A stretch of DNA of 64,000 nucleotides, taken from positions 14,200-78,199 of the forward strand of contig CAZUPS010000009.1 of NCBI GenBank assembly GCA_964621915.1, given 5' to 3'. The notes under the pieces are model-generated. The model was not told the origin of the DNA. It did no database searches and saw only the letters and a program-made list of their open reading frames with translations. The stretch's first letter is position 1. Every line of letters starts with the position of its first letter. The DNA is from an uncultured Desulfocapsa sp. GTDB lineage: Bacteria > Desulfobacterota > Desulfobulbia > Desulfobulbales > Desulfocapsaceae. Positions 12,153 to 36,842 of this stretch are shown in pieces. The position numbers were made by a program, and so were the translations under genes.

Positions 12153-12222
12153 ACATTCCCTCTTCCCTGCCAGCTTCTCTAGTTGCTCTTTTTATACTAG
12201 CGTCACGTCAACGATGGATTTT

Positions 12223-16941: not shown

Positions 16942-17099
16942 AACCCCCCACCTACCCTCCCCCTCCCCGTACAAGTGACTCCAGACACTCCTGCAGCCTA
17001 AATCGTCAAAAGAAGGCATGATAAACTCATATTGATTATGCTACTATGAGTATGCTACTGTGATCCATATCAATCAACCATTTCAACACAGGCCCTCCT

Positions 17100-18536
17100 A
17101 TGACACCAACACTTTACTGGCACGATTATGAAACATGGGGCGCAGATCCCAGAAGAGACCGGCCAGCCCAGTTTGCAGGAATTCGTACCGATACCGAATT
17201 AAATATTATCGGGAAGCCTATGAATTACTACTGTAAACCGGCGCTCGATATGCTCCCTCAGCCAGAGGCCTGCCTTATTACAGGGATTACTCCTCAGACA
17301 GCCATGGATGAAGGACTCTGCGAAGCCGAATTCATGGCTGAAATCCATCGAGAATTCATACAGCCCGGCACCTGTGGTGTTGGCTATAATAGTATTCGTT
17401 TTGACGATGAATTTACGCGTTACGGCTTCTATCGGAATTTTTTCGACCCCTATGCAAGAGAGTGGCGTAGCGGCAACTCGCGCTGGGATATTATCGATAT
17501 GATGCGCCTGACCCATGCACTTCGTCCTGAAGGAATTAAATGGCCTGTCAAAGATGATGGAAGCACGAGTTTTAAGCTTGAAGATTTAACGGCGGCAAAC
17601 GGGATCAGCCATGAAGGTGCCCACGATGCTGTTTCTGATGTATATGCCACCATTGATATGGCACGACTGGTCCGCACCCAGCACCCAAAACTCTATAGCT
17701 ACCTTTTTGATATGCGTGACAAACGCAAAGTTGGCAGCAATTTAAACTTACAGGAACAGCTGGTTATTCTTCATGTATCATCCATGTATCCCTCAAAACA
17801 GGGTTGTATCTCACCTGTAATCCCATTGGCTGCACATCCAACAAATAAAAATGGGATCATCGTTTATGATTTACGACACGATCCCGAGCCACTCCTCAGC
17901 CTTTCCTCGGAAGAAATCAAAAACAGGTTATTTATTAAAAGCAAAGATTTACCGGAAGGCGTGGAACGTATCCCACTGAAAACAATCCACCTGAACAAAT
18001 GTCCAGTGGTAGTTCCGATGAGCACTCTCACTCCTGAAGCAGCAGAACGCTGGGATATCAATCTGAAAAAAACTAAAGAACATGCTGCACAGCTCAGAGG
18101 ACTAGTGGACCTCACCATAAAGCTGCATCAGGTATATGAGGATCAGCAGTTTACTCCCATAACAGATCCCGATCAAAACCTTTATGGCGGTGGTTTTTTC
18201 TCCGATAAAGACAGGTCAATGATGGATGATATCCACGATATGTCGGTGAAGGATCTGGCAAAGACCCGTATGCATTTTGATGATCCGCGCCTTTTGGAAA
18301 TGTTGTTTCGTTTCCGCGCCAGAAACTGGCCCGAGTCCCTGTCACAGGAAGAACGTATACGCTGGAATACGTTTCGGCAAGATCGTCTCACCAATCCGGA
18401 AGCTGATAGCGGTATCACTCTTTCAGAGTACCGGAAACAACTGGTAACGATGGTTATGCAACCCGATGTAACTGAGCGAGACCGAACAATTCTTTCCGCA
18501 CTTGCAGATTGGCCTGCGGTGCTTGGAATTTCCTAA
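17100..18536 (+). CDS. sbcB: Exodeoxyribonuclease I
   Basis: 478-aa ORF. It appears collinear with E. coli SbcB along its length (WHDYETWGADPRRDRPAQFAGIRTD, GYNSIRFDDEFTR, HDAVSDVYAT, IHLNKCPVV). Confidence 0.92.
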   Translation: MTPTLYWHDYETWGADPRRDRPAQFAGIRTDTELNIIGKPMNYYCKPALDMLPQPEACLITGITPQTAMDEGLCEAEFMAEIHREFIQPGTCGVGYNSIRFDDEFTRYGFYRNFFDPYAREWRSGNSRWDIIDMMRLTHALRPEGIKWPVKDDGSTSFKLEDLTAANGISHEGAHDAVSDVYATIDMARLVRTQHPKLYSYLFDMRDKRKVGSNLNLQEQLVILHVSSMYPSKQGCISPVIPLAAHPTNKNGIIVYDLRHDPEPLLSLSSEEIKNRLFIKSKDLPEGVERIPLKTIHLNKCPVVVPMSTLTPEAAERWDINLKKTKEHAAQLRGLVDLTIKLHQVYEDQQFTPITDPDQNLYGGGFFSDKDRSMMDDIHDMSVKDLAKTRMHFDDPRLLEMLFRFRARNWPESLSQEERIRWNTFRQDRLTNPEADSGITLSEYRKQLVTMVMQPDVTERDRTILSALADWPAVLGIS

Positions 18537-18566
18537 TCTCAGGACAGTACACCTTCCGCCAGCAAA

Positions 18567-18608
18567 TAAAAAAAAGGCAGGATCATTTAGGTGATCCTGC
18601 CTTTTTTT
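18567..18608. terminator. Bidirectional rho-independent terminator between convergent sbcB and the cytochrome gene
   Basis: A 10-bp perfect stem GGCAGGATCA / TGATCCTGCC (18576-18585 and 18592-18601) is flanked by an A-run (18567-18575) and a T-run (18602-18608). Confidence 0.8.
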
Positions 18609-18637
18609 ATTCCGAATCCTTTAACCAATACCAACCA

Positions 18638-18970
18638 TCAATGATGGCAGGTTTTACATGATTTTCCCTTTGGTACCTTCATCTCCACATGACATGGCCA
18701 GCAAAATTTTTTATGAAAATCATTTTTGCTGGTGGTCAGTTTCACTATATCAACAACAAGAGGTCCGCCGCCATTTGTCGCTTGATGACACTTACTACAT
18801 TCAAGCTTCTCCTGATGTTTATGGTGGGGAAAAATAACTGCCTTCTTTTTTCCTTCCACTTTATAGGCTGCCTTTAGGTCAACTGTCTCAGGCCCCTTAT
18901 CAGCTACAGCCAAAGACGAGGCAATAACGAAAGAAAAGATGACAAAAACGGCTACAGAAAAGGGTCTCAT
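18638..18970 (-). CDS. Periplasmic triheme cytochrome c (c7 / PpcA-like)
   Basis: The start is set at MRPFSV (ATG at 18970 with AAGGAG upstream); the ORF extends to 19036. It has a signal peptide and three CXXCH motifs (CSKCH, CWPCH, CKTCH) plus His ligands (PHHKH) in a mature protein of about 87 aa. Confidence 0.85.
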   Translation of the reverse strand: MRPFSVAVFVIFSFVIASSLAVADKGPETVDLKAAYKVEGKKKAVIFPHHKHQEKLECSKCHQATNGGGPLVVDIVKLTTSKNDFHKKFCWPCHVEMKVPKGKSCKTCHH

Positions 18971-19276
18971 GGTATAACTCCTTAATGGAAATTGATTATC
19001 TATCAATAGTACTGGACTTAGCTTCAAGGCGGCCATCGTACTGTATTAATACAAAAAGAACATTAATTATTGCAATGAAGTTTTGTAAAGTAACACTATG
19101 TGATCAACCAGGCTGCCGGAAGTTCCAACAATAAGCTTCGACGACCAGAAACTTGAGATAGAAGTACTCAGGGAAGAATTGCATAAGGCGGGTTTTCAGA
19201 CCGACGGCTTGTAAGGATACGTTAAAAAAATGTGCCACCCAACAAATAGAGCACTGAAAGACAGAAAAACAATTCG

Positions 19277-20323
19277 TTACAAGTCGCCGAGCAGTGTATA
19301 GATCAACTGCCTGCCTTTGCCCTTCATCTCGACATGTTGCCCATTCGTAAAGAGAAATGTATCTTTCAAAAACTCGTAACTTGCACTTGAGACATTGATC
19401 TCCATGGGCTGAGCCGATTTCTCCATTCGAGCGGAAATATTTACGGTGTCACCAAAGATATCATATAAATATTTTTCAGTTCCGACAACGCCACCAACCA
19501 CCGGGCCGCTGTTTATGCCAATACGAATACGCCAGAGAAGTTCAGATTTCAGGTTGCGATCATTTAAAAACTCTATCATGGCAAGCGCCACCCGGCTAAC
19601 ATTGACAGCATGATCAGGATTTGGAGTGGGAACACCGCTGACAAAAAGATACGCATCTCCAATGGTTTTCATCCGTTCACAGTTATGTGCCTGGGTAATT
19701 TCATCAAAAGCTGTAAAAATATCATTTAACTCATGAATAATCACCTCAGGGGCTAGCTTGGATGAGGCGGATGTGAAATCCACAATATCGGCAAAACAAA
19801 CCGTCGCTTCAGGAAAGAGTTGTGGAGCACAACTCCCGGTGGCCAGTAACTCCTGTACAATGGGCTCTGGGAGGACATGACACAGTAAACGTTCTGACTT
19901 TTGCTTTTCTGCAACCAGCTGCTGGTTCTTCTCCTCAAGTTTATACTGGAGTTGATGAATTCGGAGATGAGTACGAGCCCTCAGCAAGACTTCCGAAGGC
20001 TGAAAAGGTTTTGTAATATAATCAATTCCCCCTGCCTCAAAACCTTCGATTTTGTCTTTTGGAGAATCAAGAGTGCTAATAAAGATAACTGGAATATCCT
20101 TAGTACGACTATCATTTTTCAGTTGCCTACAGACAGCATAGCCATCAATCCCAGGTAACAGAATGTCGAGCAAAATCAAATCCGGTAACGCTTCCTGGAC
20201 TTTTTCAAGAGCAATCTCACCAGAATAAGCTGCCACAACAGTGTAATCCTGCTTTGTAAGAAGCCGGACTAAAAGTTTCTGAAAAACAGGAGAATCCTCT
20301 ACGACCAATATAGTTTGCGACAT
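19277..20323 (-). CDS. Response regulator with class III adenylate/guanylate cyclase output
   Basis: 348-aa ORF with an N-terminal REC domain (ILVVEDS ... DLILLDILLPGIDG ... KP), a coiled linker, and a CHD cyclase domain (FADIVDFT, KTIGDAYLFVSG, DIFGDTVNISARME). Confidence 0.88.
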   Translation of the reverse strand: MSQTILVVEDSPVFQKLLVRLLTKQDYTVVAAYSGEIALEKVQEALPDLILLDILLPGIDGYAVCRQLKNDSRTKDIPVIFISTLDSPKDKIEGFEAGGIDYITKPFQPSEVLLRARTHLRIHQLQYKLEEKNQQLVAEKQKSERLLCHVLPEPIVQELLATGSCAPQLFPEATVCFADIVDFTSASSKLAPEVIIHELNDIFTAFDEITQAHNCERMKTIGDAYLFVSGVPTPNPDHAVNVSRVALAMIEFLNDRNLKSELLWRIRIGINSGPVVGGVVGTEKYLYDIFGDTVNISARMEKSAQPMEINVSSASYEFLKDTFLFTNGQHVEMKGKGRQLIYTLLGDL

Positions 20324-20684
20324 AAAGCTACTTTTTTAATAATTAGTATTAACGTAAAAGCCATCCCATCACGACATGTCATCGGACATAAAAACATATT
20401 ACCGTTAGCATTAACCCTATCAAGGAAATACAATAAATACTACCATTAGCAGAGTAGCCGTTTATCCTTTTACCATGACCACTGAAACCAGAGAAAAAAG
20501 TACTGCAGCAAAAATGAGCAAAGCACCCGAGATTATTTAGACCTTGCTAAAAACACAAATGATGATATGCCATTATTCATCCTTAAAAAAAATGACCTTG
20601 GCGCAAAAGTAAAATTAATGCTTTAATAGAAAAGCAATATGAGTTTGTCAGGAATTGTTACTTAATCAGGAAATATCTAAACCA

Positions 20685-22379
20685 ATGAAACTGCTCCTGC
20701 TTCAAATCCTCTTTTTTGTTAAAAACGAAAAAGCTAAGAAGAACGTGTTTCTTCTGGCCCGTTTTCTTTTTTTCCTCGTTTTTATAATCTGTCTCTACAG
20801 TGTTGCCTTCCACCTTATCATGGTTCACGAAGGTAAAAATTTCAGCTGGATTACAGGATTTTACTGGACCCTTACAGTCATGTCCACCCTCGGGTTTGGT
20901 GATATCACCTTTTCAACCGACCTTGGATTGGTCTTTACCCTACTTGTCCTGATATCAGGGGTAATTCTCCTCCTGATCATGTTGCCATTTACCTTTATTC
21001 AATTTTTCTGGGCTCCCTGGCTCGAAGCTCAAAATGAGACACGAATCCCCCGTTCTCTTCCAAAAGAAACAAAAGATCATGTTATCATACCCACCTATGA
21101 TGCCCTAACCAGAAACCTTGTGGAAAAACTTAAAAAACACCTTTATGACTACTACTTTGTCTGCAGCGACCAGCAGACAGCCCATGAGATACAGGACAAT
21201 GGCTACAATGTTATCTTTGGTGAAATTGACGACCCTGAAACCTACAAAAAAATAAACGCCGATGAGGCAGCTCTGCTCGTAACCACTGCAGATGACCTGC
21301 TGAATACCAATATCTCATTTACGGTGAGAGAAATCAGCGCCAGAGTTCCCATAGCCTGCAGCGCCGACAAAAAGCATTCTCTTGATATCCTTAACTTTTC
21401 CGAAAATACTCATGTTTTTCAATTTATGAGTATGCTTGGGATCAATATGGCAGAAAAGACAATACCTGTTACCACTACCCATATTATCGGTCGTTTTGAG
21501 GGGTTACGTGTTGGAGAAATCCCTGTTCGTGACACGGCACTCGTTGGTAAAACTCTTGCTGAATCAAGGCTCAGAAACACTCTTGGAATAACAGTAATCG
21601 GCATACTGGAAAAAGGAAAAATCCTTCAGCCTGAACCGCAGACAGAACTCTCTATAACAAATATCCTTATACTTGCCGGAAAACGGCAGGAGCTGGAATA
21701 TGCGGGGGAGCATCTCGTCCAACCGCCTTCGCTACCGCTCCCTGAACCAACCGTCCTTATCCTTGGCGGTGGCAGAGTCGGCGAAGCAGCTGCCCGATAT
21801 TTACAAAAAAACAACATCCCCTATATGATCATTGAAAAACGTCAAAATGTCGGCACAGATCACACTCATCATATTCATGGAGACGCGGCTGATATCAAAA
21901 CTCTGAAGGAAGCCGGGATCGACAAGGCAACCTCTGTCATAATCACCACCCACAATGATGCCATGAATATCTATCTTGCTTTTTACTGCCGTCAACTGCG
22001 ACCAGACATCCAGATTATCAGCAGAGCAAAAGAAGAACGAACGGTATCCAAACTCCATAGAGCAGGTGCTGACCTGGTTGATTCGTCAGCATCCATGGGG
22101 GCCACAGCGATTATGAACATTCTGCATCCCTCCGACACTTCAATTTTCTCAGATGCACTGAATGTGTTCTTAGTACCCACCCCCGAAGCCTTTATCGGGA
22201 AGACATTAACTGAACTGCAAATGCGGGAAAAAACAAACTGCAGTCTTCTGGCAATGAAAAATGAAGGTGAATTTCTTACAAATCCAGACCCTACCACAAT
22301 TTTTAACGACAGCCATGAACTGATTCTTGCGGGGTCAGTGGAAGCAGAGGAACAATTTCGACAGGAATACCTGGAATAA
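20685..22379 (+). CDS. 2-TM potassium channel with two RCK/TrkA modules
   Basis: The ATG is at 20685, and the ORF is open from a TTG at 20655. It has two TM helices flanking a pore helix and the selectivity filter TVMSTLGFGD. The cytoplasmic part has a degenerate first RCK domain and a second with the Rossmann motif ILGGGRVGEAAA, plus TrkA_C-like segments. Confidence 0.85.
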   Translation: MKLLLLQILFFVKNEKAKKNVFLLARFLFFLVFIICLYSVAFHLIMVHEGKNFSWITGFYWTLTVMSTLGFGDITFSTDLGLVFTLLVLISGVILLLIMLPFTFIQFFWAPWLEAQNETRIPRSLPKETKDHVIIPTYDALTRNLVEKLKKHLYDYYFVCSDQQTAHEIQDNGYNVIFGEIDDPETYKKINADEAALLVTTADDLLNTNISFTVREISARVPIACSADKKHSLDILNFSENTHVFQFMSMLGINMAEKTIPVTTTHIIGRFEGLRVGEIPVRDTALVGKTLAESRLRNTLGITVIGILEKGKILQPEPQTELSITNILILAGKRQELEYAGEHLVQPPSLPLPEPTVLILGGGRVGEAAARYLQKNNIPYMIIEKRQNVGTDHTHHIHGDAADIKTLKEAGIDKATSVIITTHNDAMNIYLAFYCRQLRPDIQIISRAKEERTVSKLHRAGADLVDSSASMGATAIMNILHPSDTSIFSDALNVFLVPTPEAFIGKTLTELQMREKTNCSLLAMKNEGEFLTNPDPTTIFNDSHELILAGSVEAEEQFRQEYLE

Positions 22380-22414
22380 TGCTGCAGCTGAGGTAATCGG
22401 CTGAAAAAAAATCA

Positions 22415-23359
22415 ATGACAACAGACGAAGAAGAAAAAAAAGAATTAACACTTCATAGTATAAAGAAGAAGCTCGCACTTTATTTCCCTGAAGATGCCTA
22501 TTCGTTTACAAAACAAGCGATTGAGGATGGAATAAGCGCTGGAGAGTTTATGGCCAACCCACTCGACATTCTCCCCTATATTCAAACTGCGTTTTTTGAT
22601 AACAAAATTCTTGAAGTAGAACTCGATGGCATGACCAGAATCTATTTCAGCAAGGTTCACGATGATATACCAGATCCTGAAGAAGTGGAAAATGAAGATG
22701 GTGAAATGGAACTGCAGCAGCCGGAATATTCAACCGGTGACTATTTAAAATTAATGAATCATCTTATTTGTCTGCCACTCGAGCCTGGGATGGGTAATCT
22801 CCATATACGCAATTCTCAAAGAGTAATGATTCGTTTCTTTACCTCCACCAGTGCCATTGAACTTGGAACATTCTTTCAGGATTTAGCACTGGTCCAGGAT
22901 CTTCCCGTTCTCCGCCTCTCCTTCCCTGTTATCGGAAGACAGGTCCGGGGAGCGAGAAGCTTTCGAGCCAAAGTTCCTGCAACAATGAATTTCACATTGC
23001 TTATAAAAGGGAAGAGAAGAGTCCGTTCGGACATCAAGACAACCCCCCTTGATATCAGCAGCGAGGGGATGTCATTTGAGGTTCAGAAAGAAGAACAAGG
23101 CTTATTTAAAGAAGATGAGCTGTGTAATATCCGTTTTTTCCTCGATGGCGACATGCATGTAAAGGTGGATGGAACCGTTCGCCATATTTCCAAGGTTCGA
23201 AATAAAAAAGGAATCCAGTATTGCTGTGGAGTACAATTTGATCTTAGCACCCGGTCACTCGCAGCTTCCATAGAAGCGATAGTGGCAGCGGTACAGCGTG
23301 CTCATTTAAAAGAACTCTCAGACAAATCAGAAGAAAGCGGTATAACTCTGATTCGCTAG
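22415..23359 (+). CDS. PilZ-like domain protein (YcgR-like two-domain layout)
   Basis: 314-aa ORF lying 35 bp after the K+ channel gene. The C-terminal half has the PilZ D-x-S-x-x-G motif (DISSEG) preceded by an Arg-rich stretch (RQVRGARSFR) that lacks a strict RxxxR spacing. Confidence 0.65.
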   Translation: MTTDEEEKKELTLHSIKKKLALYFPEDAYSFTKQAIEDGISAGEFMANPLDILPYIQTAFFDNKILEVELDGMTRIYFSKVHDDIPDPEEVENEDGEMELQQPEYSTGDYLKLMNHLICLPLEPGMGNLHIRNSQRVMIRFFTSTSAIELGTFFQDLALVQDLPVLRLSFPVIGRQVRGARSFRAKVPATMNFTLLIKGKRRVRSDIKTTPLDISSEGMSFEVQKEEQGLFKEDELCNIRFFLDGDMHVKVDGTVRHISKVRNKKGIQYCCGVQFDLSTRSLAASIEAIVAAVQRAHLKELSDKSEESGITLIR

Positions 23360-25663: not shown

Positions 25664-26599
25664 ATGATTAAACTTATTTCACTCGGAATTTTATCCGGCG
25701 CCTTCTTTAGTTCCACTTTCATACTTAATGAAGCTATGAGCCTAGAGGGTGGTCATTGGGTCTGGTCCGCCTCTCTGCGATATGCTTTCATGTTGTTATT
25801 TCTAGTGATTATTGTCTTGTTTAGCGGTGGCCGAAAACAACTTTGGGATGTGGCTGAATTATTTTATTCTCATTGGCAATTTTGGATTCTTGCCGGAAGT
25901 ATTGGATTCGGAGGGTTTTATTCTCTTCTCTGCTTCAGTGCGGACTTTTCACCAGGTTGGGTAATTGCTGCTACCTGGCAATTTACGGTCGTTGCCAGTC
26001 TTTTCATACTTATACTATTCGGTCGTAAATTTCCAAAACGCGTCTGGCTGTTTTCATCGCTCATTTTTCTAGGCGTGATTCTGGTGAATTTATCTCATAT
26101 TGAAGACTTTGACCCGAAGGTTTTCCTGCTAGGTGGAATCCCAGTGCTGATCGCAGCGTTCTGCTATCCATTTGGCAATCAACTTGTTTGGGAGGCAAAA
26201 AATGCAACGAATAAAAAGATTCCCCATATTACCTCACCTCTGCTGAACAATGTTTTTAATAAAGTCCTGTTGCTGACAGTAGGTTCCATCCCTCTGTGGA
26301 TTGTTCTTGTCTTGATTACCCATCCACCAGCACCGAGCATATCTCAAACCATAAATACCTCATTGGTCGCTTTACTGTCGGGCATCTTTGCCACCAGCAT
26401 ATTTCTTTTTGCACGCAATTTAGCATCAAACTCAAATGAACTGGCTGGTGTCGATGCCACTCAAGCGAGTGAAGTGATATTTGCCCTGCTTGGAGGTATC
26501 ATATTCCTTGATGGTAAGACTCCAAATAATACTTCAATCATAGGACTGGCATTGATACTGGTTGGATTAGTTTTTTTTATCACGTTTCAGAAAGGATAA
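25664..26599 (+). CDS. DMT-superfamily-like 10-TM membrane transporter
   Basis: 311-aa ORF with about 10 hydrophobic helices in a two-repeat layout. It resembles the multidrug-efflux-type DMT family. No soluble domain was seen. Confidence 0.6.
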   Translation: MIKLISLGILSGAFFSSTFILNEAMSLEGGHWVWSASLRYAFMLLFLVIIVLFSGGRKQLWDVAELFYSHWQFWILAGSIGFGGFYSLLCFSADFSPGWVIAATWQFTVVASLFILILFGRKFPKRVWLFSSLIFLGVILVNLSHIEDFDPKVFLLGGIPVLIAAFCYPFGNQLVWEAKNATNKKIPHITSPLLNNVFNKVLLLTVGSIPLWIVLVLITHPPAPSISQTINTSLVALLSGIFATSIFLFARNLASNSNELAGVDATQASEVIFALLGGIIFLDGKTPNNTSIIGLALILVGLVFFITFQKG

Positions 26600-26691: not shown

Positions 26692-27567
26692 ATGGAGAGA
26701 AACGTACAATACCCTCAAGACTCAAAGACACCTGCAGTATCTGTACGGGGAATAAAAAAAACACACTCCCCTGCCTGCATGCTTCTCTTATTCCTGTTTC
26801 TTTCCCTCTCCCCATCGCTCTTTGTCTCTTCCGCACTGGCTATGGAAAAAGTTGCATTTTTTTATTTTAATCCCGATTCCGTCCAGTCCAACTTCTCTCT
26901 GCTCACAAAAGAGATCGATACCTTCCTCACCAAACAGGGTTACCAGGTCCAGTTTCAGGCCTTCTCCCATCAATCCGACTTTGATCTCCTGCTCTCTTCA
27001 CATCCACCGAGTTTTGTGCTTGTGCCTGCCTGGTACTATGAACAGTACGGCCAGACCATGGGGCTTACCCCTCTGTTGATCCCCCTTAACCAGAGTAAAC
27101 CGAGCTACACCAAGGTGCTGCTCAAACGTTCCGGTGAAGATGGCAATACTACTCTCTCGGGCAAGACTCTGGCTGTTACTTCCATGGGGCCGGATACCGA
27201 AAAACAGTTGGCATTTTTTTTCAACAATGGGCGACACTTTGATTTTGCTGGCAGCCATCTTATCATCACCCCCAAAGATGCCGATGCTCTCTATGCCCTG
27301 GCTCTGGGACAGGTTGATATGGCAGTGGTTGGGAAGAATACCATGGATGTGGTGAGGGCTGTCAACAGCAGAATAGTGGATGTGGTGGCAGAGGTGGCTC
27401 CGTCCCACCCGGTTCCCATGCCCATTCTCTGTGTGCTGGATGGGGAAATGAGCCGGGAAGAAATCTCACAGCTTAAACAGATCTTCTTTTCCACCGGCCA
27501 CGGACATCCCCTGCCGGAATTTATGAAAATGTTGCAGTTTAACGGGTGGCAGAATGCGATGCTCTAA
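26692..27567 (+). CDS. PhnD-like (type 2) periplasmic substrate-binding protein
   Basis: 291-aa ORF. An alternative start at 26779 gives a clean signal peptide MLLLFLFLSLSPSLFVSSALA. The mature part resembles PhnD/phosphonate-type binding proteins (LAVTSMGPDTEKQ, PKDADALYALALGQVDMAVV). It overlaps the next gene by 14 bp. Confidence 0.65.
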   Translation: MERNVQYPQDSKTPAVSVRGIKKTHSPACMLLLFLFLSLSPSLFVSSALAMEKVAFFYFNPDSVQSNFSLLTKEIDTFLTKQGYQVQFQAFSHQSDFDLLLSSHPPSFVLVPAWYYEQYGQTMGLTPLLIPLNQSKPSYTKVLLKRSGEDGNTTLSGKTLAVTSMGPDTEKQLAFFFNNGRHFDFAGSHLIITPKDADALYALALGQVDMAVVGKNTMDVVRAVNSRIVDVVAEVAPSHPVPMPILCVLDGEMSREEISQLKQIFFSTGHGHPLPEFMKMLQFNGWQNAML

Positions 27568-28486
27568 GATAACTAATATCTTACTGCTTCTCTGCCTGCT
27601 GCTGCCCTCAGCTGCATGGGCGGAAGGCTGGGTAGCTATCCTGCTCAGTGACACCGAAGCGATCTATCATAAACCGATACAGAGCTTCCGGGCAGCCATG
27701 CCTCTGGAGACCCGCGAGTTTAACCTCCATGATAATATCCGCCGCGCCCCGCAGCTGAAAAAGGAGATTTTTACAGATCCTCCGAGTCTGATTTTTGCGC
27801 TTGGCGCTAAGGCCGCCTTTGCCGCTAAGCTCTGGACAAAAAACCACCAAGATATCCCTGTGCTTTTTGCCATGGTCCTCAATTACCAGAAATATCATCT
27901 GCTCGACGGGCAATCCAATATCACCGGTATCAGCTCAGAGGTCAATCCTGGTAACCAGTTTCTGAACCTGACCCTCTTTGCCCCTAAGATCCGTCGTATT
28001 GGGGTAATATACAGTAAAGAGTATTCCAGTGAACTGGTGGCAGAAGCCAAAAAAGCAACCGAGATGCTCGGTCTTGAACTTATTGAAATCCCTATCACAG
28101 CCAAAGAGTCATTTCGGCAAAGCTACAAAGAGCTCTCTGCTAACGTGGATGGCATCTGGGTGCTCAACGATGCGCTAACCTATACCCTTGATAATATGGA
28201 CTGGCTTCAGGAGCGCTGTATCCAGGATCAATTGGTCTGCATCGGTCAAAGCGGTAATCTGGCCCAGGTTGGTATATTGCTCTCCGTTCGGCCCGATAGT
28301 GCCGGCATCGGCGTACAGGCTGCCTCGATGAGTAAAAACATCCTTGACCACAAACAGTCCCCAGCCAGCATCGGGGTTATGGACCCCCTGGGTACCGATA
28401 TCAGCCTCAACCGCCGCACTGCCAGACGTATTGGCCTCAGCCTGAACCCACAGGCCCTGAATATGGCCACCACCATCATCGAATAA
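27554..28486 (+). CDS. ABC_sub_bind-family periplasmic binding protein
   Basis: 310-aa ORF with a signal peptide (LLPSAAWA). The mature N-terminus, WVAILLSDTEAIYHKPIQSFRAAM, and the overall layout match the PF04392-type binding proteins often found next to signalling genes. Confidence 0.75.
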   Translation: MRCSKITNILLLLCLLLPSAAWAEGWVAILLSDTEAIYHKPIQSFRAAMPLETREFNLHDNIRRAPQLKKEIFTDPPSLIFALGAKAAFAAKLWTKNHQDIPVLFAMVLNYQKYHLLDGQSNITGISSEVNPGNQFLNLTLFAPKIRRIGVIYSKEYSSELVAEAKKATEMLGLELIEIPITAKESFRQSYKELSANVDGIWVLNDALTYTLDNMDWLQERCIQDQLVCIGQSGNLAQVGILLSVRPDSAGIGVQAASMSKNILDHKQSPASIGVMDPLGTDISLNRRTARRIGLSLNPQALNMATTIIE

Positions 28487-28583
28487 GTTTTTTCCTTGCC
28501 TTTCCTCCTCCCAAGACCATACAATGACTCTATGGTTACCCTGTGGCACCTCCAATCCAACCATTGCATCAAGAGAGGAAAAA

Positions 28584-30776
28584 ATGAAGAAGACATTCTA
28601 TCCACTTCTAGCAGTGCTTATGGTCTGTTCACCAGCCCTTGCTATGGCAACAGAGCAGAAGCCACTCAATCTGGAAGAACAGGATGCCAAAGCCATGGCA
28701 GAGATGTTCCCAGAGGATGCGCCCTCGGAGGGTAGTGTATACCGGGCTGACCGGCTGCTGATCTCCGCCACCGGCTCTGAGAAACCCGTGCGTTTAGCAC
28801 CATCGGTGGCCTCAGTTGTCACCATGGAAGAGATCGAGCAGATGGGTGCCAGAACTCTCAATGAAGTGCTGGAGACCGTCCCCGGCCTCCATGTTTATCC
28901 CTCCAATAAGAACGTAATGGATAACAACTATTCCATCCGGGGTATCCACACCAGTATCAATCCCCAGACCCTCTTTCTTGTGAATGGTATCCCCGCCAAC
29001 ATGACCGTTACCGGGGCTCGCCCTCCTCTCTTTCAAATGCCGGTTTCTATGATATCCCGAGTGGAGGTGGTACGAGGTCCGGGATCGGCTGTCCACGGTG
29101 CTGATGCCTTTTCCGGGGTGATCAATGTTATCACCAAGGATGGTAAGGAGATCGACGGCCTCCACGGCGGGGCACGTTATGGCTCCTTTGACAGTGTGGA
29201 TGGCTGGACCCAGTACGGTAGCAATCTTAAGGGGTGGGACGTGGCCCTGAGTCTTGACTATATGAGCTCCCAGGGGGATAAAGACAGGGGCATTGGCAAC
29301 GATCTTCAGGGCGTACTCGATAGGGCCCTGGGCACCAATGCCTCCCTGGCTCCTGGTGCTCTGGATACCAGCTATGATATGATCGATGCTCAACTAGCCT
29401 TAAGAAAAAATGAGTGGAATATGCGGCTCTGGGGCTGGAAGAAGAACAACGCAGGGGTTGCAGATGGAGTAACCCAAACCCTGAGCGATGACAGCAGGAT
29501 TGACAATAGTCTCTTTCGTATAGAGACCGGATACGACAACAACTCACCTGGAAAAGACTGGGGGATAAGCTCCCGACTCAGCTATCAATATACCCATTAC
29601 GAAGCCAGAGCACAGCTCTTCCCGGACGGAGCAGTACTGCCCATTGGCGCAGATGGCAATATTGATTTCACCAATCCCACTGGTGCAACCTTTTTTCCCG
29701 ATGGTGTCATCGGTATCCCTGTGAGCATCGAAAACAGGGTTGATTTTGAGACTGCCCTTAACTACGAAGGCTTCGCTCAACAGAAATGGCGGCTGGCAGC
29801 AGGCCTCAATTATACCCATTTCAGTCCCGAAGAGACGAAGAATTTTGGCCCTAGCATACTGGACACCACTCCCACCCCTACGATCAGCACCGGAGTTCTC
29901 ACTGAGATAACCGATTACTCGTTGATGTTTTCTGACCAACAGGAGCGTACCGATCTCTTTCTCTCAGCCCAAGACGAATGGGCCTTTGCCAGAGGCTGGG
30001 AACTTACCGCCGGAGTGCGCTATGACTACTACTCCAACTTTGGTTCCACCATCAATCCCCGCGCCGCCCTGGTCTGGGAGACCAGTCCGCAACTCACCTC
30101 CAAACTATTATACGGACGGGCCTTCCGGGCACCCTCTTTTAACGAACTCTACGTCCAAAACAACCCATCCAATAACGGCAATCCGGACCTTGATCCCGAA
30201 ACCATCGACACCTACGAGCTGGCCTTTATCTGGGAACCGGCCAATAGCCTGACCATGGGAACAAATTTCTTCTATTATGATATTAAAGACCTTATCGAGC
30301 TGGTCCAGGATCCGGGACAAACCACCCTCACCTCACAGAACGCCAAAGATCAGGATGGCTACGGCTTTGAGCTGGAAGCAGCCTGGCAGGCCCTGGACAC
30401 TCTGCAATTCAAGGGCAATATGGCCTTCCAGCATTCAGAAGATACGGCGACAGGTGAACGGGTAGCCGATGCCCCAGGCCTGCAACTGTACCTTACTGGC
30501 AACTGGCAGTTTCGCCCCAACCACTCCCTGGATATCCAATACTTCTGGATTGGTGACAGGGAACGGGGGACGGGTGATACCCGTGAAGACATTAACGACT
30601 ACTCTCTGGTCAATCTGACCCTGCACCGCACCAATATCGCCGAAAACTGGGACGTGACCCTTGCTGCCCGCAACATCTTTGATAAAAATATCCGGGAACC
30701 AAGCCAAGCGGTGATCACTGATGACTACCCCATGGAAGGGCGTTCCTTCTGGGCGGAAGTAAGTTTTCATTATTAG
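28584..30776 (+). CDS. TonB-dependent outer-membrane receptor
   Basis: The ATG is at 28584 (GAGAGG upstream), and the ORF is open from 28524. It has a signal peptide, a plug domain (PSVASVVTMEEIEQMGARTLNEVLETVPGL, VEVVRGPGSAVHGADAFSGVINVITK), a long barrel and a terminal aromatic residue (VSFHY). Confidence 0.9.
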   Translation: MKKTFYPLLAVLMVCSPALAMATEQKPLNLEEQDAKAMAEMFPEDAPSEGSVYRADRLLISATGSEKPVRLAPSVASVVTMEEIEQMGARTLNEVLETVPGLHVYPSNKNVMDNNYSIRGIHTSINPQTLFLVNGIPANMTVTGARPPLFQMPVSMISRVEVVRGPGSAVHGADAFSGVINVITKDGKEIDGLHGGARYGSFDSVDGWTQYGSNLKGWDVALSLDYMSSQGDKDRGIGNDLQGVLDRALGTNASLAPGALDTSYDMIDAQLALRKNEWNMRLWGWKKNNAGVADGVTQTLSDDSRIDNSLFRIETGYDNNSPGKDWGISSRLSYQYTHYEARAQLFPDGAVLPIGADGNIDFTNPTGATFFPDGVIGIPVSIENRVDFETALNYEGFAQQKWRLAAGLNYTHFSPEETKNFGPSILDTTPTPTISTGVLTEITDYSLMFSDQQERTDLFLSAQDEWAFARGWELTAGVRYDYYSNFGSTINPRAALVWETSPQLTSKLLYGRAFRAPSFNELYVQNNPSNNGNPDLDPETIDTYELAFIWEPANSLTMGTNFFYYDIKDLIELVQDPGQTTLTSQNAKDQDGYGFELEAAWQALDTLQFKGNMAFQHSEDTATGERVADAPGLQLYLTGNWQFRPNHSLDIQYFWIGDRERGTGDTREDINDYSLVNLTLHRTNIAENWDVTLAARNIFDKNIREPSQAVITDDYPMEGRSFWAEVSFHY

Positions 30777-30809
30777 ATCAGAACCTCTAGTCTTTAACCT
30801 TCAGTTTTA

Positions 30810-32609
30810 ATGACAACAGACACCACCACAACAACCGTCAGCCTCAGTCAACCCGGTCCTCGTTACCTTATTCCCATCAAGGGCTACTTTGCCCTGATGA
30901 ATATTGTGGTGCTCTGTCTCCTCTTTCCAACCATCAGCTATTTCTTTTATAGCCAGACCACCTCGTTCAGGGATGCTCAGCTTGAACGGGCAGTAAATGA
31001 GCAAACCAAGGCCATGGAACAGCGGGCAACCCTGTTACTCCGGTCACTCTCCCGCACCGGCACCCAGGCCATTTCAAACTATAACTACACGTTCCTCAGC
31101 ACCCTGATCCGTAGAACAGTAAACAGTGATGATGAACTCCTAGCCTGTGAATTTGTCAGCACAGAGGAAAAGAAAGCCGCAGCCGGTATCAGCCTCCCCG
31201 GAATGGTCATGAAGAATGTCTTTACAGCAGACAAGCAGGAAGATGCAATTGACCAACCCCAGACTCACGGGCTAGGCAGTGAACAGCTACCAGTGTTGTT
31301 TTTCGAATATTCCTCACCTTCCTCCAGCTTTTCACCCCTCTTGCTGGTCAAGGTGCCAGTGAATATGGGTGGCAAAATATGGGGTTTTGTCTATTCCGCT
31401 TTTTCGCTTGAACAACGAAACCACCTCATCGAACAGTACCGGCAGGAATGGGGGCTCCAGATCCAACAATACCGACTCTTTCTCTCTGCAGTAACAGCAC
31501 TTTTTTTTATCCTGGGTGTCACCTCGGCCATTCTCTTTACCCGGCCCCTGGTGCGTAGCATTGAAGGCTTACGGGACGGAGTTGACCGAGTGGCTGGAGG
31601 GGACCTATCCCATAGTATCGGATTTGATCGTTTGGCCTGTCGTGAATTTGCAAGCCTTGGCCAGTCATTTAACACCATGACTGACAGTCTGCGCCTGTCA
31701 CGCAAACAACTTGACGAATACGCCCATACCCTTGAAACAAAAGTAGAAGAACGAACCCGGGACCTCCAGGAAGCACAAGCCGAACTCCTCAACCAGGCCC
31801 ATGAAGCAGGTATGGCTGAAATGGCAGTGGGTGTACTCCATAATATTGGCAACGCCATTACGCCGGCCAAGGTGGAAGCACAGGTTTTGGCAAAACAACT
31901 GCAAGAGAGCCGACTACGTACCGGCCTTGCCCAGGCCCTGAAACCACTGCCGGAGCTCATCAAAGAAGCTGCATTAAAAGATGAGGAGAAAGAACGCCTC
32001 CACAAAATAATCGACCTGCTTCCCGCCAGTGTGAGTCAGGAATATGACCAGACCATTGCCGGACTGACCAATATCAGCGACAAACACCACTATATTGAAA
32101 ACATTATCTCCCTGCAGATGCATTATGCCAGGCTCCAGGGTAACCCGGATCTTATTGAAAGCAACCAGATCATACGTGACAGCCTCAAGATAATGGATAA
32201 ACAACTGCATCTGGTACAAATCACAACCGATCTCCAGTCGATGGCCAAAGTACGTCTGGAGGAGAGCAAACTACTGCAGATCCTTGTCAATCTCATCAAG
32301 AACAGTTCTGAAGCCATGACTGATAACGAAAATGACAGTCGTAAACTGCGGATCAGCAGTGCCGACCACAATGAAGAGGTGGTGATCACTGTGAGTGACA
32401 ATGGCTGCGGCTTTGGCAAAGAGATACAAGAAAATATGTTTCGTTTTGGCTACAGCTCCAAATCACGGGGTAGCGGCTTTGGTCTTCACTCCTGTGCCAA
32501 CTACCTTATCGCTAATAACGGATCAATCAGTGCATCCAGCGATGGTGTCGGAAAAGGCGCTGCCTTTTTCGTCCACCTACCCGTTGCAAAAGCAGACGAT
32601 GGAGAATAG
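30810..32609 (+). CDS. Membrane HAMP-domain sensor histidine kinase
   Basis: 599-aa ORF. Layout is TM, a periplasmic segment of about 180 aa, TM, HAMP (RPLVRSIEGLRDGVDRVAGGDLSH), a coiled coil, the H-box GVLHNIGNAITP, and the ATPase motifs DNGCGF and GSGFGLH. Confidence 0.85.
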   Translation: MTTDTTTTTVSLSQPGPRYLIPIKGYFALMNIVVLCLLFPTISYFFYSQTTSFRDAQLERAVNEQTKAMEQRATLLLRSLSRTGTQAISNYNYTFLSTLIRRTVNSDDELLACEFVSTEEKKAAAGISLPGMVMKNVFTADKQEDAIDQPQTHGLGSEQLPVLFFEYSSPSSSFSPLLLVKVPVNMGGKIWGFVYSAFSLEQRNHLIEQYRQEWGLQIQQYRLFLSAVTALFFILGVTSAILFTRPLVRSIEGLRDGVDRVAGGDLSHSIGFDRLACREFASLGQSFNTMTDSLRLSRKQLDEYAHTLETKVEERTRDLQEAQAELLNQAHEAGMAEMAVGVLHNIGNAITPAKVEAQVLAKQLQESRLRTGLAQALKPLPELIKEAALKDEEKERLHKIIDLLPASVSQEYDQTIAGLTNISDKHHYIENIISLQMHYARLQGNPDLIESNQIIRDSLKIMDKQLHLVQITTDLQSMAKVRLEESKLLQILVNLIKNSSEAMTDNENDSRKLRISSADHNEEVVITVSDNGCGFGKEIQENMFRFGYSSKSRGSGFGLHSCANYLIANNGSISASSDGVGKGAAFFVHLPVAKADDGE

Positions 32610-32614
32610 AAAGG

Positions 32615-34312
32615 ATGATCGAAATAAATAAACGCATTCTAGTCATTGATGATGATCATGAAATCTGGAAGGCGTATAAAATGGTCCTTGAACCGGAAAT
32701 CGCACAGCTTGGCTCCGTTAAAGAACAGATGGATCTGCTCCTTGGCAATGGAGAGGAAAAGACTCAGCACGCAGCATCCTATGAGGTGAGTTACGCCGAC
32801 CAGGGCAGAGACGGATTTGTACAGATTGAAAATTCTCTCACCGAGCAGACCCCTTTTGCCGTGGCCTTTATTGATGTACGTATGCCACCGGGCTGGGACG
32901 GTATGAAGACTGCCAGTCGTATTCGTCAGTTGGATAAAGATATTGAAATCGTCATCGTCACTGCCTACTCAGATCGTTCCTGCGAAGAAATTATCCAGCA
33001 GGTCGGATCTCCCGACAAACTGCTCTTTCTCCGTAAACCCTTTGACACCGAAGAACTCAAACAGCTTGCCCTGTCACTCACCGAGAAATGGAACATCGCC
33101 CGGCGGGAAGAGATCCAACGCCTGGAACTGCAGGAGATAATCATTTCCTTGAAAGAATTGCAGCAAGAACAGCAGGCCCTGCAGAAAAAGCTGACGCAAG
33201 CCCAGAAGATGGAGGCCATTGGCCTGATGGCCGGTGGAGTAGCCCATGATCTTAACAATATTCTCTCCGGAATTGTCAGTTATCCTGAATTGATGCTCCT
33301 TAAATTACCGATGGACAGCGAGCTCCGTAAATATGTGCAACCTGTACGAGATGCCGGCCTCCGAGCCTCGGCCGTGGTGGCCGACATGCTTACTGTGGCC
33401 AGGGGAGTGGCCATTGTACGAGAACCATCAGATCTCAACCAGCTGGTTGTCGAATATCTGGAATCACCAGAAGGTCAGGAGCTGCAACGGCTCCATCCGG
33501 ATCTTGAGTTCTCCAGTGCCCTGACCGAGCACAAGGCTGTTATTTCCTGTTCCCAAGTACATATTAAAAAGTGTTTAATGAACCTCATGACCAACGCGGC
33601 TGAGGCCATTGATGGACCGGGAAAAGTAACAATCAGCACCGATATGGTTCCCATTGGGAAAAGGTCCACAGACAGTGGTTCAGTAGCTCTACAAGTTGCC
33701 GATACCGGCCCCGGTATTGCTGTGGAAGATCTGGAGCGAATATTTGAGCCCTTTTATTCAAAGAAAGAACTTGGCCGCAGCGGTACCGGACTTGGACTTG
33801 CCGTGGTCTGGAACTGTATCCAAAACCACGAAGGCAAGGTTGATGTGGAAAGCAGCGCCGAGGGAACAGTCTTCACCCTGCAATTCCCGATAAGTGAGCG
33901 GACTCCAGTCAAGCCCCAAAAACAGACATCCATCGATGACCTGCAGGGCAGTGCCACAGTTCTGGTGGTGGATGATGAAGAGCAGCAACGTGATATTGCC
34001 CTGAACCTGCTCCAGCAACTGGGATACACGGTGCAGACCGTTAGCAGCGGTGAAGAGGCCGTTGAGTATTTAAGAGATAATGCTGTTGATCTGGTACTGC
34101 TTGATATGATCATGGCTCCCGGAATAGATGGTCGCCAGACCTATGAGGAAATTATTACATTCCAGCCGCATCAGAAGGCCCTGGTGGTCAGCGGCTTTTC
34201 AGAAAGTAACGATGTGCAGCAAACCATCGCCCTGGGCGCCGGAGGATTTATCCGCAAACCTTATACCATGGAACAACTTGGAAAAGAAATACAGGAAATA
34301 TTACAAGAATAA
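32615..34312 (+). CDS. Soluble hybrid kinase REC-HisKA-HATPase_c-REC
   Basis: 565-aa ORF. It has an N-terminal receiver with a long insert (ILVIDDD ... FIDVRMPPGWDG ... VTAYSD), the H-box GGVAHDLNNILSGI, ATPase motifs DTGPGI and GTGLGLAVV, and a C-terminal receiver (VLVVDDE ... LVLLDMIMAPGIDG). Confidence 0.9.
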   Translation: MIEINKRILVIDDDHEIWKAYKMVLEPEIAQLGSVKEQMDLLLGNGEEKTQHAASYEVSYADQGRDGFVQIENSLTEQTPFAVAFIDVRMPPGWDGMKTASRIRQLDKDIEIVIVTAYSDRSCEEIIQQVGSPDKLLFLRKPFDTEELKQLALSLTEKWNIARREEIQRLELQEIIISLKELQQEQQALQKKLTQAQKMEAIGLMAGGVAHDLNNILSGIVSYPELMLLKLPMDSELRKYVQPVRDAGLRASAVVADMLTVARGVAIVREPSDLNQLVVEYLESPEGQELQRLHPDLEFSSALTEHKAVISCSQVHIKKCLMNLMTNAAEAIDGPGKVTISTDMVPIGKRSTDSGSVALQVADTGPGIAVEDLERIFEPFYSKKELGRSGTGLGLAVVWNCIQNHEGKVDVESSAEGTVFTLQFPISERTPVKPQKQTSIDDLQGSATVLVVDDEEQQRDIALNLLQQLGYTVQTVSSGEEAVEYLRDNAVDLVLLDMIMAPGIDGRQTYEEIITFQPHQKALVVSGFSESNDVQQTIALGAGGFIRKPYTMEQLGKEIQEILQE

Positions 34313-35204: not shown

Positions 35205-36425
35205 ATGAAACTTGAACCGAGAAGATACATCGTCATCGTGGTCTTACTATGGATTGTGAGTATCTTTGCATCCCTTTCCTGGAACCTGTTTCAAATAAAA
35301 GAATCTGCCGAGATAGAGCATCTAAAGACAGCAAAAGCCTTTGTTCAACAAGTTTTAATTACCAGAGCATGGAATGCGTCTCACGCTGGTATCTACCTCC
35401 GTATATCAGACACACTTCAACCAAATCCATTTTTACAGGTTTCTAATAGAGATATCGAGGCTACCAATGGTTTGCAACTTACACTCGTCAACCCGGCATT
35501 TATGACTCGAATGATTTCAGAGATTGCCAATAAACAGGGAGATGTGAAATTCCACATGACGAGTTTAAAACCGATTAACCCCCAGAACAAACCATCCGCA
35601 TGGGAAAGAGTCGGCTTACTAGCTTTTGAAAACAATCAAACGCAGGCTTATTACAACACTGGTAAGGAAAATGGAGCTAAATCTTTCAGCTACATGGCTC
35701 CGTTAGTCACTAACAAATCCTGTCTTCAATGCCACGCAAAACAAGGTTACAAAGAAGGAGAAATTCGAGGTGGGGTCAGTGTCAGTTTTCCGATTACACA
35801 AAAGAAGAATGGAGCTCTGATTGCCAGTCATTTTTTTATGCTTTGTACAGGAGTATTAGTTCTGGCTGGTTTTGGAAATCGAATTGTTAATCTGACTGAA
35901 GCACTGAAAAAACAGTCTAATATTGATGGGCTTACACAAATAGCAAACCGAAGATTCTTTGACGAAACACTTCATCGGGAATGGTTGCGTAGTAGACGAT
36001 TAAGATCACCATTGTCTCTGATTATGTGCGACATAGATTACTTCAAATTATACAATGATACCTACGGCCATCAGTCTGGGGATAGGTGTTTGAAAAAGGT
36101 AGCTCAAGCTTTGCAAGATGCAGCAAAACGTCCGGAAGATTTAGTTGCAAGATATGGAGGAGAGGAGTTTGTAATAATTTTACCTGAGACACCTTCTGAA
36201 GGTGCAACAGTGGTGGCAGAACAAGTACGAGAAGCTGTGGAGTCTTTAAAAATAAAACATAGCTCCAGTGGCATCGCTGAATACGTGACAATCAGCCTTG
36301 GAATTGCAACCCGAACACTCACTCAAGTCTCAGCAGAAAATGAACTTATAGAAAGTGCAGATAAAGCACTATACACCTCCAAAGAGATTGGGAGAAACAT
36401 TTTTACGCATGCTGATGATATATAA
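35205..36425 (+). CDS. Diguanylate cyclase with a periplasmic heme-c DUF3365 (Tll0287-like) sensor
   Basis: 406-aa ORF. Layout is TM, a DUF3365 pattern (RAWNASHAGIYL, LVNPAFMTRM, one CLQCH heme site followed by GYKEGEIRGGVSVSFP), TM, then GGDEF with RYGGEEFVIIL. Confidence 0.85.
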   Translation: MKLEPRRYIVIVVLLWIVSIFASLSWNLFQIKESAEIEHLKTAKAFVQQVLITRAWNASHAGIYLRISDTLQPNPFLQVSNRDIEATNGLQLTLVNPAFMTRMISEIANKQGDVKFHMTSLKPINPQNKPSAWERVGLLAFENNQTQAYYNTGKENGAKSFSYMAPLVTNKSCLQCHAKQGYKEGEIRGGVSVSFPITQKKNGALIASHFFMLCTGVLVLAGFGNRIVNLTEALKKQSNIDGLTQIANRRFFDETLHREWLRSRRLRSPLSLIMCDIDYFKLYNDTYGHQSGDRCLKKVAQALQDAAKRPEDLVARYGGEEFVIILPETPSEGATVVAEQVREAVESLKIKHSSSGIAEYVTISLGIATRTLTQVSAENELIESADKALYTSKEIGRNIFTHADDI

Positions 36426-36566: not shown

Positions 36567-36836
36567 CTAGCAGCAAGGACCTTCAATCCCCAGCAACTCA
36601 TTGATAATTCCACGTACACAGCCTTCCCCCGCTTCCACAGTAATTGCTCCACTTGGACAGTTACGCATGCAGGCGCCGCACTCCATACACAAATTTCGAC
36701 GGACTATTACCGCTTTTTTAGCCTCTATCCGAAAAACTCCATGGGGACAGACGATACTACACATTGTGCAACCGATACATTTTTCCTGGTCATACTCAAG
36801 TGTCACCACATCTTCTAAATAACGAAATTCTGCCAT
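36567..36836 (-). CDS. hgcB: HgcB, the 2x[4Fe-4S] ferredoxin partner of HgcA
   Basis: 89-aa ORF with the clusters CIGCTMCSIVCP and CMECGACMRNCP (the HgcB-type C(M/I)ECGA motif), an extra Cys in GEGCVRG and a C-terminal Cys pair (GPCC). It lies 6 bp downstream of hgcA. Confidence 0.85.
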   Translation of the reverse strand: MAEFRYLEDVVTLEYDQEKCIGCTMCSIVCPHGVFRIEAKKAVIVRRNLCMECGACMRNCPSGAITVEAGEGCVRGIINELLGIEGPCC

Positions 36837-36842
36837 ATCTAT

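Follow-up and report, generated by a model that had tools for sequence, protein, structure and literature searches.

Linked genes for a TonB-dependent receptor, two binding proteins and two histidine kinases in Desulfobulbales: a candidate uptake-and-sensing module

Several described bacterial systems place a TonB-dependent receptor (TBDR) or a periplasmic binding protein ahead of a sensor kinase, and they provide the closest points of comparison for a five-gene operon found in a 64,000-nt stretch of DNA (hereafter the window) from an uncultured Desulfocapsa sp. (assembly GCA_964621915.1, contig CAZUPS010000009.1, positions 14,200-78,199). The operon occupies 26692-34312 of the window and encodes two substrate-binding proteins (SBP1 and SBP2), a TBDR, a membrane-bound sensor kinase (HK1) and a soluble hybrid kinase (HK2). 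The best explanation for these genes is, in our view, that they constitute the uptake-and-sensing module of an uncharacterised system which is widespread in Desulfobulbales. Co-sensing by binding proteins is established for AioX-AioS and others, with AioS possessing an sCache-like sensor and AioX being a PF12974 protein (PMC8050422). In Pseudomonas aeruginosa, ferri-enterobactin must pass PfeA or PirA before it is sensed in the periplasm by PfeS, and the ligand never reaches the cytoplasm (PMC8001512). Likewise, the SusC-type TBDRs of Bacteroides feed periplasmic sensors of the hybrid two-component system (HTCS) type, among which the sensor of BT1754 assumes a periplasmic-binding-protein fold (PMC3243724). 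In light of these precedents, PfeA-PfeS and SusC-HTCS, a first-pass annotation of this DNA went too far in stating that the placing of a dedicated TBDR ahead of such a relay has not been characterised. The novelty of the locus narrows to TBDR-gated, binding-protein-assisted periplasmic sensing in a new combination; the literature searched contained no description of a TBDR together with two free SBPs of different families, a Cache kinase and a kinase led by a receiver (REC) domain, nor of this Desulfobulbales system.

Comparison with the individual systems reveals partial likenesses in each case. As in the AioX-AioS-AioR and ArrX-ArrS-ArrR systems, an orphan, secreted SBP of the PhnD family is encoded without ABC genes beside a membrane kinase with a single-Cache-like sensor; however, the Aio and Arr systems have one SBP, one kinase, no TBDR and an adjacent DNA-binding regulator, whereas the window operon has two SBPs, a TBDR and a second, hybrid kinase, and lacks the regulator. 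With the PfeA-PfeS/PfeR and PirA-PirS/PirR loci of P. aeruginosa it shares the placement of a TBDR gene beside a two-component system. The Pfe system, in contrast, uses no SBP co-sensor, and couples a classical kinase to an OmpR-type regulator that responds to ferri-enterobactin with pfeA and pfeE as output; no DNA-binding regulator that might induce the TBDR was found in the window operon or among its conserved neighbours. The resemblance to the Bacteroides SusC and HTCS pairs lies in import of the ligand to the periplasm by a TBDR and its detection by an inner-membrane kinase. In the polysaccharide utilization loci of Bacteroides, however, the kinase carries the binding-protein fold as a fused domain, an AraC-type helix-turn-helix is part of the same polypeptide, SusD and glycoside hydrolases are encoded alongside and the ligands are glycans; neither a SusD-like lipoprotein nor an HTCS with AraC output is represented among the domains at the window locus. 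The LvrA-LvrB pair of Leptospira offers a parallel for the kinases, in that an upstream kinase is followed by a second kinase led by a REC domain, and in the window a REC-HisKA-HATPase protein is indeed encoded 5 bp after the sensor kinase, though HK2 has an extra C-terminal REC relative to LvrB, and LvrA/LvrB occur without a TBDR or SBPs. The SBP genes also differ from those of ABC importers of the PhnCDE and TrpXYZ type in not sharing an operon with a permease and an ATPase.

The FecA-FecR-FecI system, too, employs a TBDR in signalling about an external ligand, but it needs an STN extension on the receptor and a pair of anti-sigma and ECF sigma factors. The receptor of the window has Plug and barrel as its sole Pfam domains and thus no STN extension, and no anti-sigma/ECF sigma pair was recovered among the annotated neighbours in the window. 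A transducer of the FecA type was ruled out on these two grounds.

Composition of the window operon

All five plus-strand open reading frames (ORFs) were verified at the coordinates given in Table 1, and their translations and Pfam domains agree with the layout, domain content and spacing described in the first-pass annotation. SBP1 and SBP2 overlap by 14 bp, and the successive gaps thereafter are 97 bp (with the TBDR start at 28584), 33 bp and 5 bp. Pfam annotation of the five genes revealed neither an ABC-transporter component (permease or ATPase) nor a DNA-binding regulator inside the operon; this part of the earlier description also holds, with the qualification that an ABC importer of the Liv type, without an SBP gene of its own, is encoded further downstream. 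The identical arrangement, in which the TBDR is directly followed by HK1, is seen in two independent assemblies (L087 and L088), indicating that it is not an assembly artefact. The G+C content at third codon positions (GC3) of all five genes is 0.52-0.59, as against a window mean of 0.45 (sd 0.07) and values of 0.39 and 0.34 for the flanking genes at 25664-26599 and 35205-36425, and the five-gene block may have moved or been transferred as a unit. The upstream neighbour of the operon is rlmL in the closest relatives and an EamA-type transporter in the window. A scan of the region from 25 to 37 kb for promoter and terminator consensus sequences returned counts close to the shuffled expectation and no clear terminator after HK2.

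Table 1. Coordinates of the operon genes and of the nearby ABC importer in the window
Feature	Position	Strand	Remarks
SBP1, PhnD-family binding protein	26692..27567	+	PF12974 Phosphonate-bd, 29.9 bits against a cut-off of 27
SBP2, ABC_sub_bind binding protein	27554..28486	+	PF04392, E 9.5e-22; signal peptide
TBDR, TonB-dependent receptor	28584..30776 (ORF from 28524)	+	PF07715 Plug and PF00593 TonB_dep_Rec_b-barrel only
HK1, sensor kinase with two transmembrane segments	30810..32609	+	HAMP and HATPase_c
HK2, soluble hybrid kinase	32615..34312	+	REC-HisKA-HATPase_c-REC
Liv-type ABC importer, two BPD_transp_2 permeases and two ATPases, no SBP gene	38843-42248	-	4.5 kb downstream

Examination of the translations shows signal peptides on both SBP1 and SBP2. 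In the case of SBP1 the start is probably M30 at 26779, from which the signal peptide MLLLFLFLSLSPSLFVSSALA is obtained; an identical 262-aa database protein begins at the same methionine, making 26779 the likely start. While SBP1 found no match in the PDB by sequence alone, its AlphaFold2 (AF2) model, based on 34 homologues (pLDDT 89.6), recovered ArrX (6x8w) and AioX (6esk) as the best Foldseek matches (TM ~0.72), with PtxB, BstB (7t1m) and PhnD close behind; sequence identity to AioX and ArrX is 16-17%. Since the margin over the transport SBPs is small, the match fixes the family of SBP1 as that of PhnD and is only suggestive of a signalling role, and it is to this extent that the likening of SBP1 to kinase co-sensors in the first-pass annotation finds support. 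The nearest solved structures to SBP2 by sequence are 3lkv, 6hni and 3lft. The two SBP genes are adjacent wherever both were found, and usually overlap; of the 35 related loci with an SBP1 gene, 34 have SBP2 immediately behind it, the sole departure being L035, in which the two are divergent. Further PF04392-like genes adjoin PAS-HisKA-HATPase-REC kinases or GGDEF genes in other loci (L001, 13513-17154; L085, 21488-21806), and this family may commonly partner signalling proteins in Desulfobulbales.

The start of the TBDR at 28584 provides it with a canonical signal peptide (MKKTFYPLLAVLMVCSPALAMA), and about 45 acidic residues separate this peptide from the motif LLISATG, which is likely to be the TonB box. 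The protein is of the type with a plug and a 22-strand barrel, ends in an aromatic residue, and, as had been noted earlier, is devoid of an N-terminal signalling extension. Its sequence matches in the PDB, which run through the plug, are CirA, BtuB and FepA; no NCBIfam model reaches its cut-off, with the SusC/RagA model scoring 61 bits against a cut-off of 368.

HK1 displays hydrophobic segments at residues ~26-46 and ~222-243 that enclose a periplasmic loop of ~175 aa, close to the ~180 aa claimed before. Its H-box, GVLHNIGNAITP with His344, is atypical, which explains the absence of a HisKA match; H344, the N box and the G1 and G2 boxes are nevertheless invariant across 17 orthologues. The family PF17203 (sCache_3_2) is matched by 11 of these 17 proteins, the window HK1 itself not being among them, and the AF2 model of HK1 contains, between the transmembrane helices, a long helix, a short helix and a five-strand sheet, which is the layout of Cache/PDC domains. 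The model thus supports a periplasmic domain of the single-Cache type, the same class that has been assigned to AioS (PMC8050422), consistent with the earlier suggestion of a kinase of the co-sensor kind. A Foldseek search with the full-length HK1 model retrieved generic kinase cores only and did not resolve the sensor domain; the LvrB structure 8vc9 figured only among these generic core matches. HK2 matches the NCBIfam LvrB model with an E-value of 9e-31, which is below the cut-off of that model.

Linkage through rearrangement and the transporter question

Conservation was studied in 80 genomic loci, whose ORFs were labelled by BLASTP against the proteins of the window and of two relatives. 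Full-length homologues of HK1 are confined to Desulfobulbales/Desulfobulbia, their sources being Desulfobulbaceae, Desulfurivibrionaceae, Desulfocapsa, Ca. Electrothrix and unclassified Thermodesulfobacteriota. For the census we used a subset of 27 Desulfobulbales loci, the window included, with at least 8 kb on either side of HK1. In these, HK1 is accompanied by HK2 in 26 of 27 cases, by SBP2 in 23, by SBP1 in 22 and by a TBDR of at least 40% identity in 20 (more divergent TBDRs being present in L085, L035 and L050); a thiamine-pyrophosphate (TPP) enzyme is found in 19 and a pair of proteins resembling citryl-CoA lyase (CCL-like) in 17. If SBP1 is written as a, SBP2 as b, the TBDR as T, the CCL-like genes as c and d, a short-chain dehydrogenase/reductase (SDR) as s, the TPP enzyme as P, HK1 as K and HK2 as H, with a prime for the opposite strand, at least ten gene orders occur, inversions included, such as abTcdPKH, abKHTcdP, abP'd'c'T'KH, TcdsPb'a'KH, KHab and a'bHKscdP. 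Three sub-units stay together through these changes, namely SBP1-SBP2, HK1-HK2 and the TBDR with the enzyme genes behind it. HK2 is directly downstream of HK1 in 25 of the 26 full-flank loci that hold it, and upstream in L035; when all 60 loci are considered, the SBP pair is immediately upstream of HK1 in 15 and of the TBDR in 13, and lies divergently next to HK1 in 3. Linkage that persists through this much rearrangement points to a functional connection rather than merely inherited adjacency, and it is well beyond chance. Thus, the census of co-occurrence that the first-pass annotation had proposed finds the genes linked across many genomes, with their order shuffled and with no conserved ABC genes.

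A distinct organization is seen in cable bacteria. In Ca. Electrothrix aarhusensis (L089) a single row holds the SBP pair, the TBDR, the CCL-like pair, an O-methyltransferase, an SDR, a condensation-like gene and the TPP enzyme, and the HK1-HK2 pair is found on another contig; around the cable-bacterial HK1-HK2 pairs of L031, L039 and L041, the SBPs, the TBDR and the enzymes are all absent within 10 kb. This separation of the SBPs from the kinases could mean that SBP1 and SBP2 are ordinary transport parts, which deliver the cargo of the TBDR to an unlinked importer, possibly the Liv-type system of the window, with the kinases sensing by other means or directly through the Cache domain. PF12974 and PF04392 are both primarily families of ABC-transporter components, BPD_transp_2 permeases partner PF04392 proteins in TrpXYZ-type systems, and the nearby BPD_transp_2 importer is without an SBP gene. 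However, the Liv-type permeases have no homologue in the ~55 related loci, and the accompanying ATPases match only distant ABC ATPases in four of them. Furthermore, a search of the related loci for ABC-ATPase motifs produced just two distant candidates, and clustering of all unlabelled neighbour genes yielded no recurrent transporter of any kind. The abutment of the SBP pair on HK1, including the divergent instances, and the best structural matches of SBP1, which are signalling SBPs by a narrow margin over transport SBPs, also speak against a purely transport-related role. We accordingly consider such a role distinctly unlikely; the Liv-type system was set aside as the partner of the SBPs on account of its lack of conservation in relatives, and is treated here as a neighbour by chance. 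The genes of this importer are part of a minus-strand operon of unusual make-up (36567-42248), in which they are followed by a rhodanese-rubrerythrin fusion, a CdhD-like protein and a ferredoxin.

A variable enzyme cluster behind the receptor

Behind the TBDR, most relatives encode two CCL-like proteins and a TPP enzyme resembling acetolactate synthase. The CCL-like proteins are paralogs of ~280 aa, whose best matches are citryl-CoA lyase models and the structure 6hxp (E 2e-20), below the family cut-offs, whereas the TPP enzyme (~570 aa) belongs to the acetolactate-synthase group and has as its best solved relative a protein deposited as BbmA (8x3x, E 1e-135). To this core are added lineage-specific genes for an SDR, a small-molecule O-methyltransferase, a sulfotransferase with an APS kinase, a KAS III and a further protein with weak, sub-threshold matches to condensation/PapA-like acyltransferases. 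Signal peptides are absent from all the enzymes of the cluster, which indicates that they are cytoplasmic. Biosynthetic clusters usually look like this, with a core that stays constant and tailoring enzymes that vary, and O-methyltransferases, PAPS-dependent sulfotransferases with APS kinase, KAS III and condensation-like acyltransferases are typical of biosynthesis rather than catabolism. Judged by these matches, the enzyme set resembles a small-molecule pathway.

Of all relatives, the two closest to the window locus (HK1 79-82% identical) encode the CCL-like pair as well as the TPP enzyme in the interval from the TBDR to HK1, which in the window is a 33-bp spacer. A tblastn search of the 64-kb window with the CCL-like, TPP and SDR proteins of the relatives found nothing, and comparison of the TBDR-HK1 junction with that of the closest enzyme-bearing relative showed no recognisable deletion scar. 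The enzyme-free order abTKH (or TKH) is also present in L018 and in L060/L045, which represent two other HK1 clades and stand there beside enzyme-bearing loci, and the TBDR is full-length in every locus of this enzyme-free form. The occurrence of enzyme-free loci in three separate clades implies that the enzymes were lost at least three times, and the five-gene form of the window is, on this phylogenetic reading, a derived and recurrent loss variant. This link to a variable enzyme cluster that is lost from the window's copy is the most interesting result of the analysis. It also bears on the earlier proposal that a ligand is imported only in order to be sensed, which fails as a claim about the whole system, for enzymes stand behind the TBDR in most relatives, the two closest included; import solely for sensing may hold in the window's genome. 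The sensing interpretation of the first-pass annotation therefore survives in respect of the linkage, the lack of conserved ABC genes and the structural class of SBP1 and HK1, and not in respect of the novelty of the architecture or of import for sensing alone.

Partial decay is apparent in another close relative, L086 (HK1 82% identical), where the region 3296-5311 encodes a truncated SBP2 of 204 aa and, immediately ahead of HK1, a 232-aa stretch that is all that is left of the TBDR and corresponds to its plug; here the import half appears to be decaying with the kinases persisting. A separate trace of rearrangement is provided by the exonuclease I gene (sbcB), which in the window (17100-18536) precedes the operon by 8 kb and in L085 (8103-9539) lies between the TPP enzyme and HK1, the shift in position being a sign of local rearrangement around the system.

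Such decay, together with the invariable position of the enzymes, when present, immediately behind the TBDR, would also fit a locus in which the imported molecule is an exogenous nutrient that the CCL-like and TPP enzymes catabolise, with the SBPs and the kinase relay inducing the locus and the window's copy being a decaying remnant. A precedent for inducible uptake of this kind is PfeS/PfeR-PfeA (PMC8001512), and Xanthomonas and Bacteroides TBDR loci would be further parallels. Nevertheless, the enzymes are cytoplasmic, yet no inner-membrane importer is conserved that would bring a nutrient to them, and all five genes are intact and of full length in the window and in two other clades. The accessory genes, moreover, are of a biosynthetic and not a catabolic kind from what is generally known of their families. 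We regard nutrient catabolism as an unlikely basis for the system.

The tailoring genes have a further implication when taken with the structural matches of SBP1, among the top ones of which is BstB, reported as a PhnD-like sterol carrier (PMC10942540). The presence of KAS III and acyltransferase-like genes in some clusters suggests acylated products, and SBP1 and SBP2 might conceivably carry an acylated, hydrophobic metabolite through the periplasm, outward from the inner membrane to the TBDR-like barrel or in both directions. However, a BstA-like RND partner is not conserved, ArrX, AioX and PtxB score at least as well as BstB, and TBDRs are known as importers; lipid trafficking by these proteins is accordingly very improbable.

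Proposed circuit, its output and wider occurrence

In light of the above contextual and structural connections, we propose a model in which the TBDR would draw on TonB for the energy to import a specific small molecule, X, through the outer membrane, and X would be captured in the periplasm by the AioX/ArrX-like SBP1, by SBP2 or by both, possibly acting as a pair. The loaded binding protein would dock on the single-Cache domain of HK1, which would then autophosphorylate on His344 and pass the phosphate to the N-terminal receiver of HK2. HK2 would in turn control its own kinase and its C-terminal receiver, feeding an output encoded elsewhere. The CCL-like, TPP and tailoring enzymes of the relatives probably make X, or, less likely, consume it, such that X would resemble a secreted metabolite that is re-imported and sensed following the logic of siderophores or autoinducers. 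The window's copy, with its enzymes lost and its receptor, SBPs and kinases intact, would be a derivative reduced to receptor and sensor. Taken as a whole, from TBDR import through SBP capture and docking on the Cache kinase to the two-kinase relay, with enzymes that are probably ligand-making and a sensor-only form in the window, we give this model an even chance of being correct.

With respect to phosphotransfer between the kinases, the N-terminal REC of HK2 belongs to a subtype that also follows HK1-like kinases as a stand-alone REC in L023, L024 and L043 and, as part of a REC-GGDEF-CBS protein, in the Planctomycetota locus L067. The same subtype leads an HK2-like hybrid kinase in the gammaproteobacterial locus L080, where a separate REC-HD-GYP protein adjoins. 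The recurrence of this REC subtype after HK1-like kinases supports, but does not prove, a transfer from HK1 to the N-terminal REC of HK2.

Several observations weigh against this uptake-and-sensing model. To the primary association of both SBP families with ABC transporters and the Liv-type importer, which is the main local argument for a transport role, is added the split in Ca. Electrothrix, which indicates that the SBPs are not exclusively tied to the kinase. Neither an exporter nor an inner-membrane importer is conserved in the related loci, and this leaves a gap in the biosynthetic and the catabolic interpretation alike. No output regulator is found in the operon or conserved in relatives, and what follows HK2 is a 107-aa ORF without a family and then a Tll0287-GGDEF gene without a REC domain, neither of which adjoins the system in other genomes. 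Furthermore, neither Fur boxes nor sigma-54 (-24/-12) promoters were enriched over background in the upstream regions of SBP1, the TBDR, HK1, the first CCL-like gene (CCLa) and the TPP gene when all loci were scanned, the lack of enrichment ahead of SBP1 and the TBDR counting against the model, and a k-mer search for a shared operator upstream of these two genes returned nothing convincing. Finally, the tree that underlies the count of losses is a neighbour-joining tree of HK1 without support values, and the enzyme genes may reside elsewhere in the same genome, beyond the 64 kb of the window.

If the model is correct, it would add to the FecA-type transducer and to direct sensing of the PfeS type a third TBDR signalling route, in which import leads to SBP capture and a two-kinase relay. 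In any case, the genes represent a conserved and apparently unstudied system of sulfate-reducing, sulfur-disproportionating and cable bacteria, and a survey of nickel homeostasis in the latter lists several TBDRs without an assigned function (PMC11247825). A more speculative extension, which we put forward tentatively and as rather improbable, is that Desulfobulbales, including cable bacteria, release tailored metabolites, retrieve them to the periplasm via the TBDR and sense them, with the organism of the window being a non-producer that eavesdrops on or pirates the metabolite of others. The system would then amount to a TonB-gated public-good or autoinducer circuit, in which the window organism and at least two further lineages are non-producers. 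The repeated loss of the enzymes with retention of the receptor and sensors offers a testable handle on metabolite sharing and cheating in anoxic sediments.

Related gene sets are seen outside Desulfobulbales. In the Planctomycetota loci L067, L068, L073 and L081 a TBDR gene lies upstream of an HK1-like kinase, and the row of L067, the sole one of the four with Pfam annotation, comprises a TBDR, a YfiR/HmsC-like DUF4154 protein, a CHASE8-HAMP kinase and a REC-GGDEF-CBS protein. It resembles the window locus in the HNIGN-type H-box of its kinase, in the same downstream REC subtype and in the upstream TBDR followed by a small periplasmic protein; it differs in having DUF4154 in place of the two SBPs, CHASE8 in place of Cache and a cyclic di-GMP cyclase as output. 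Together these loci suggest a set that recurs across phyla, in which a TBDR and a small periplasmic protein are combined with an HNIGN-type kinase and a special receiver; no account of an association between DUF4154 and TBDRs was present in the literature searched. The system itself extends beyond Desulfobulbales in the gammaproteobacterial locus L080, from a metagenome-assembled genome, which combines a TBDR, an SDR, a CCL-like pair, an SBP2-like PF04392 protein, the REC-hybrid kinase, the REC-HD-GYP protein and an HK1-like kinase, and additionally encodes a secreted 239-aa protein without a family.

The window is itself dense in signalling genes. Two regions (9108-23359 and 62656-63873) encode a four-PAS hybrid kinase, a sensor-GGDEF protein, a sensor kinase and a REC-adenylate/guanylate cyclase, along with a TrkA-gated K+ channel, a PilZ protein and a REC-PP2C phosphatase. 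Any receiver protein of the window could be a downstream partner of HK2.

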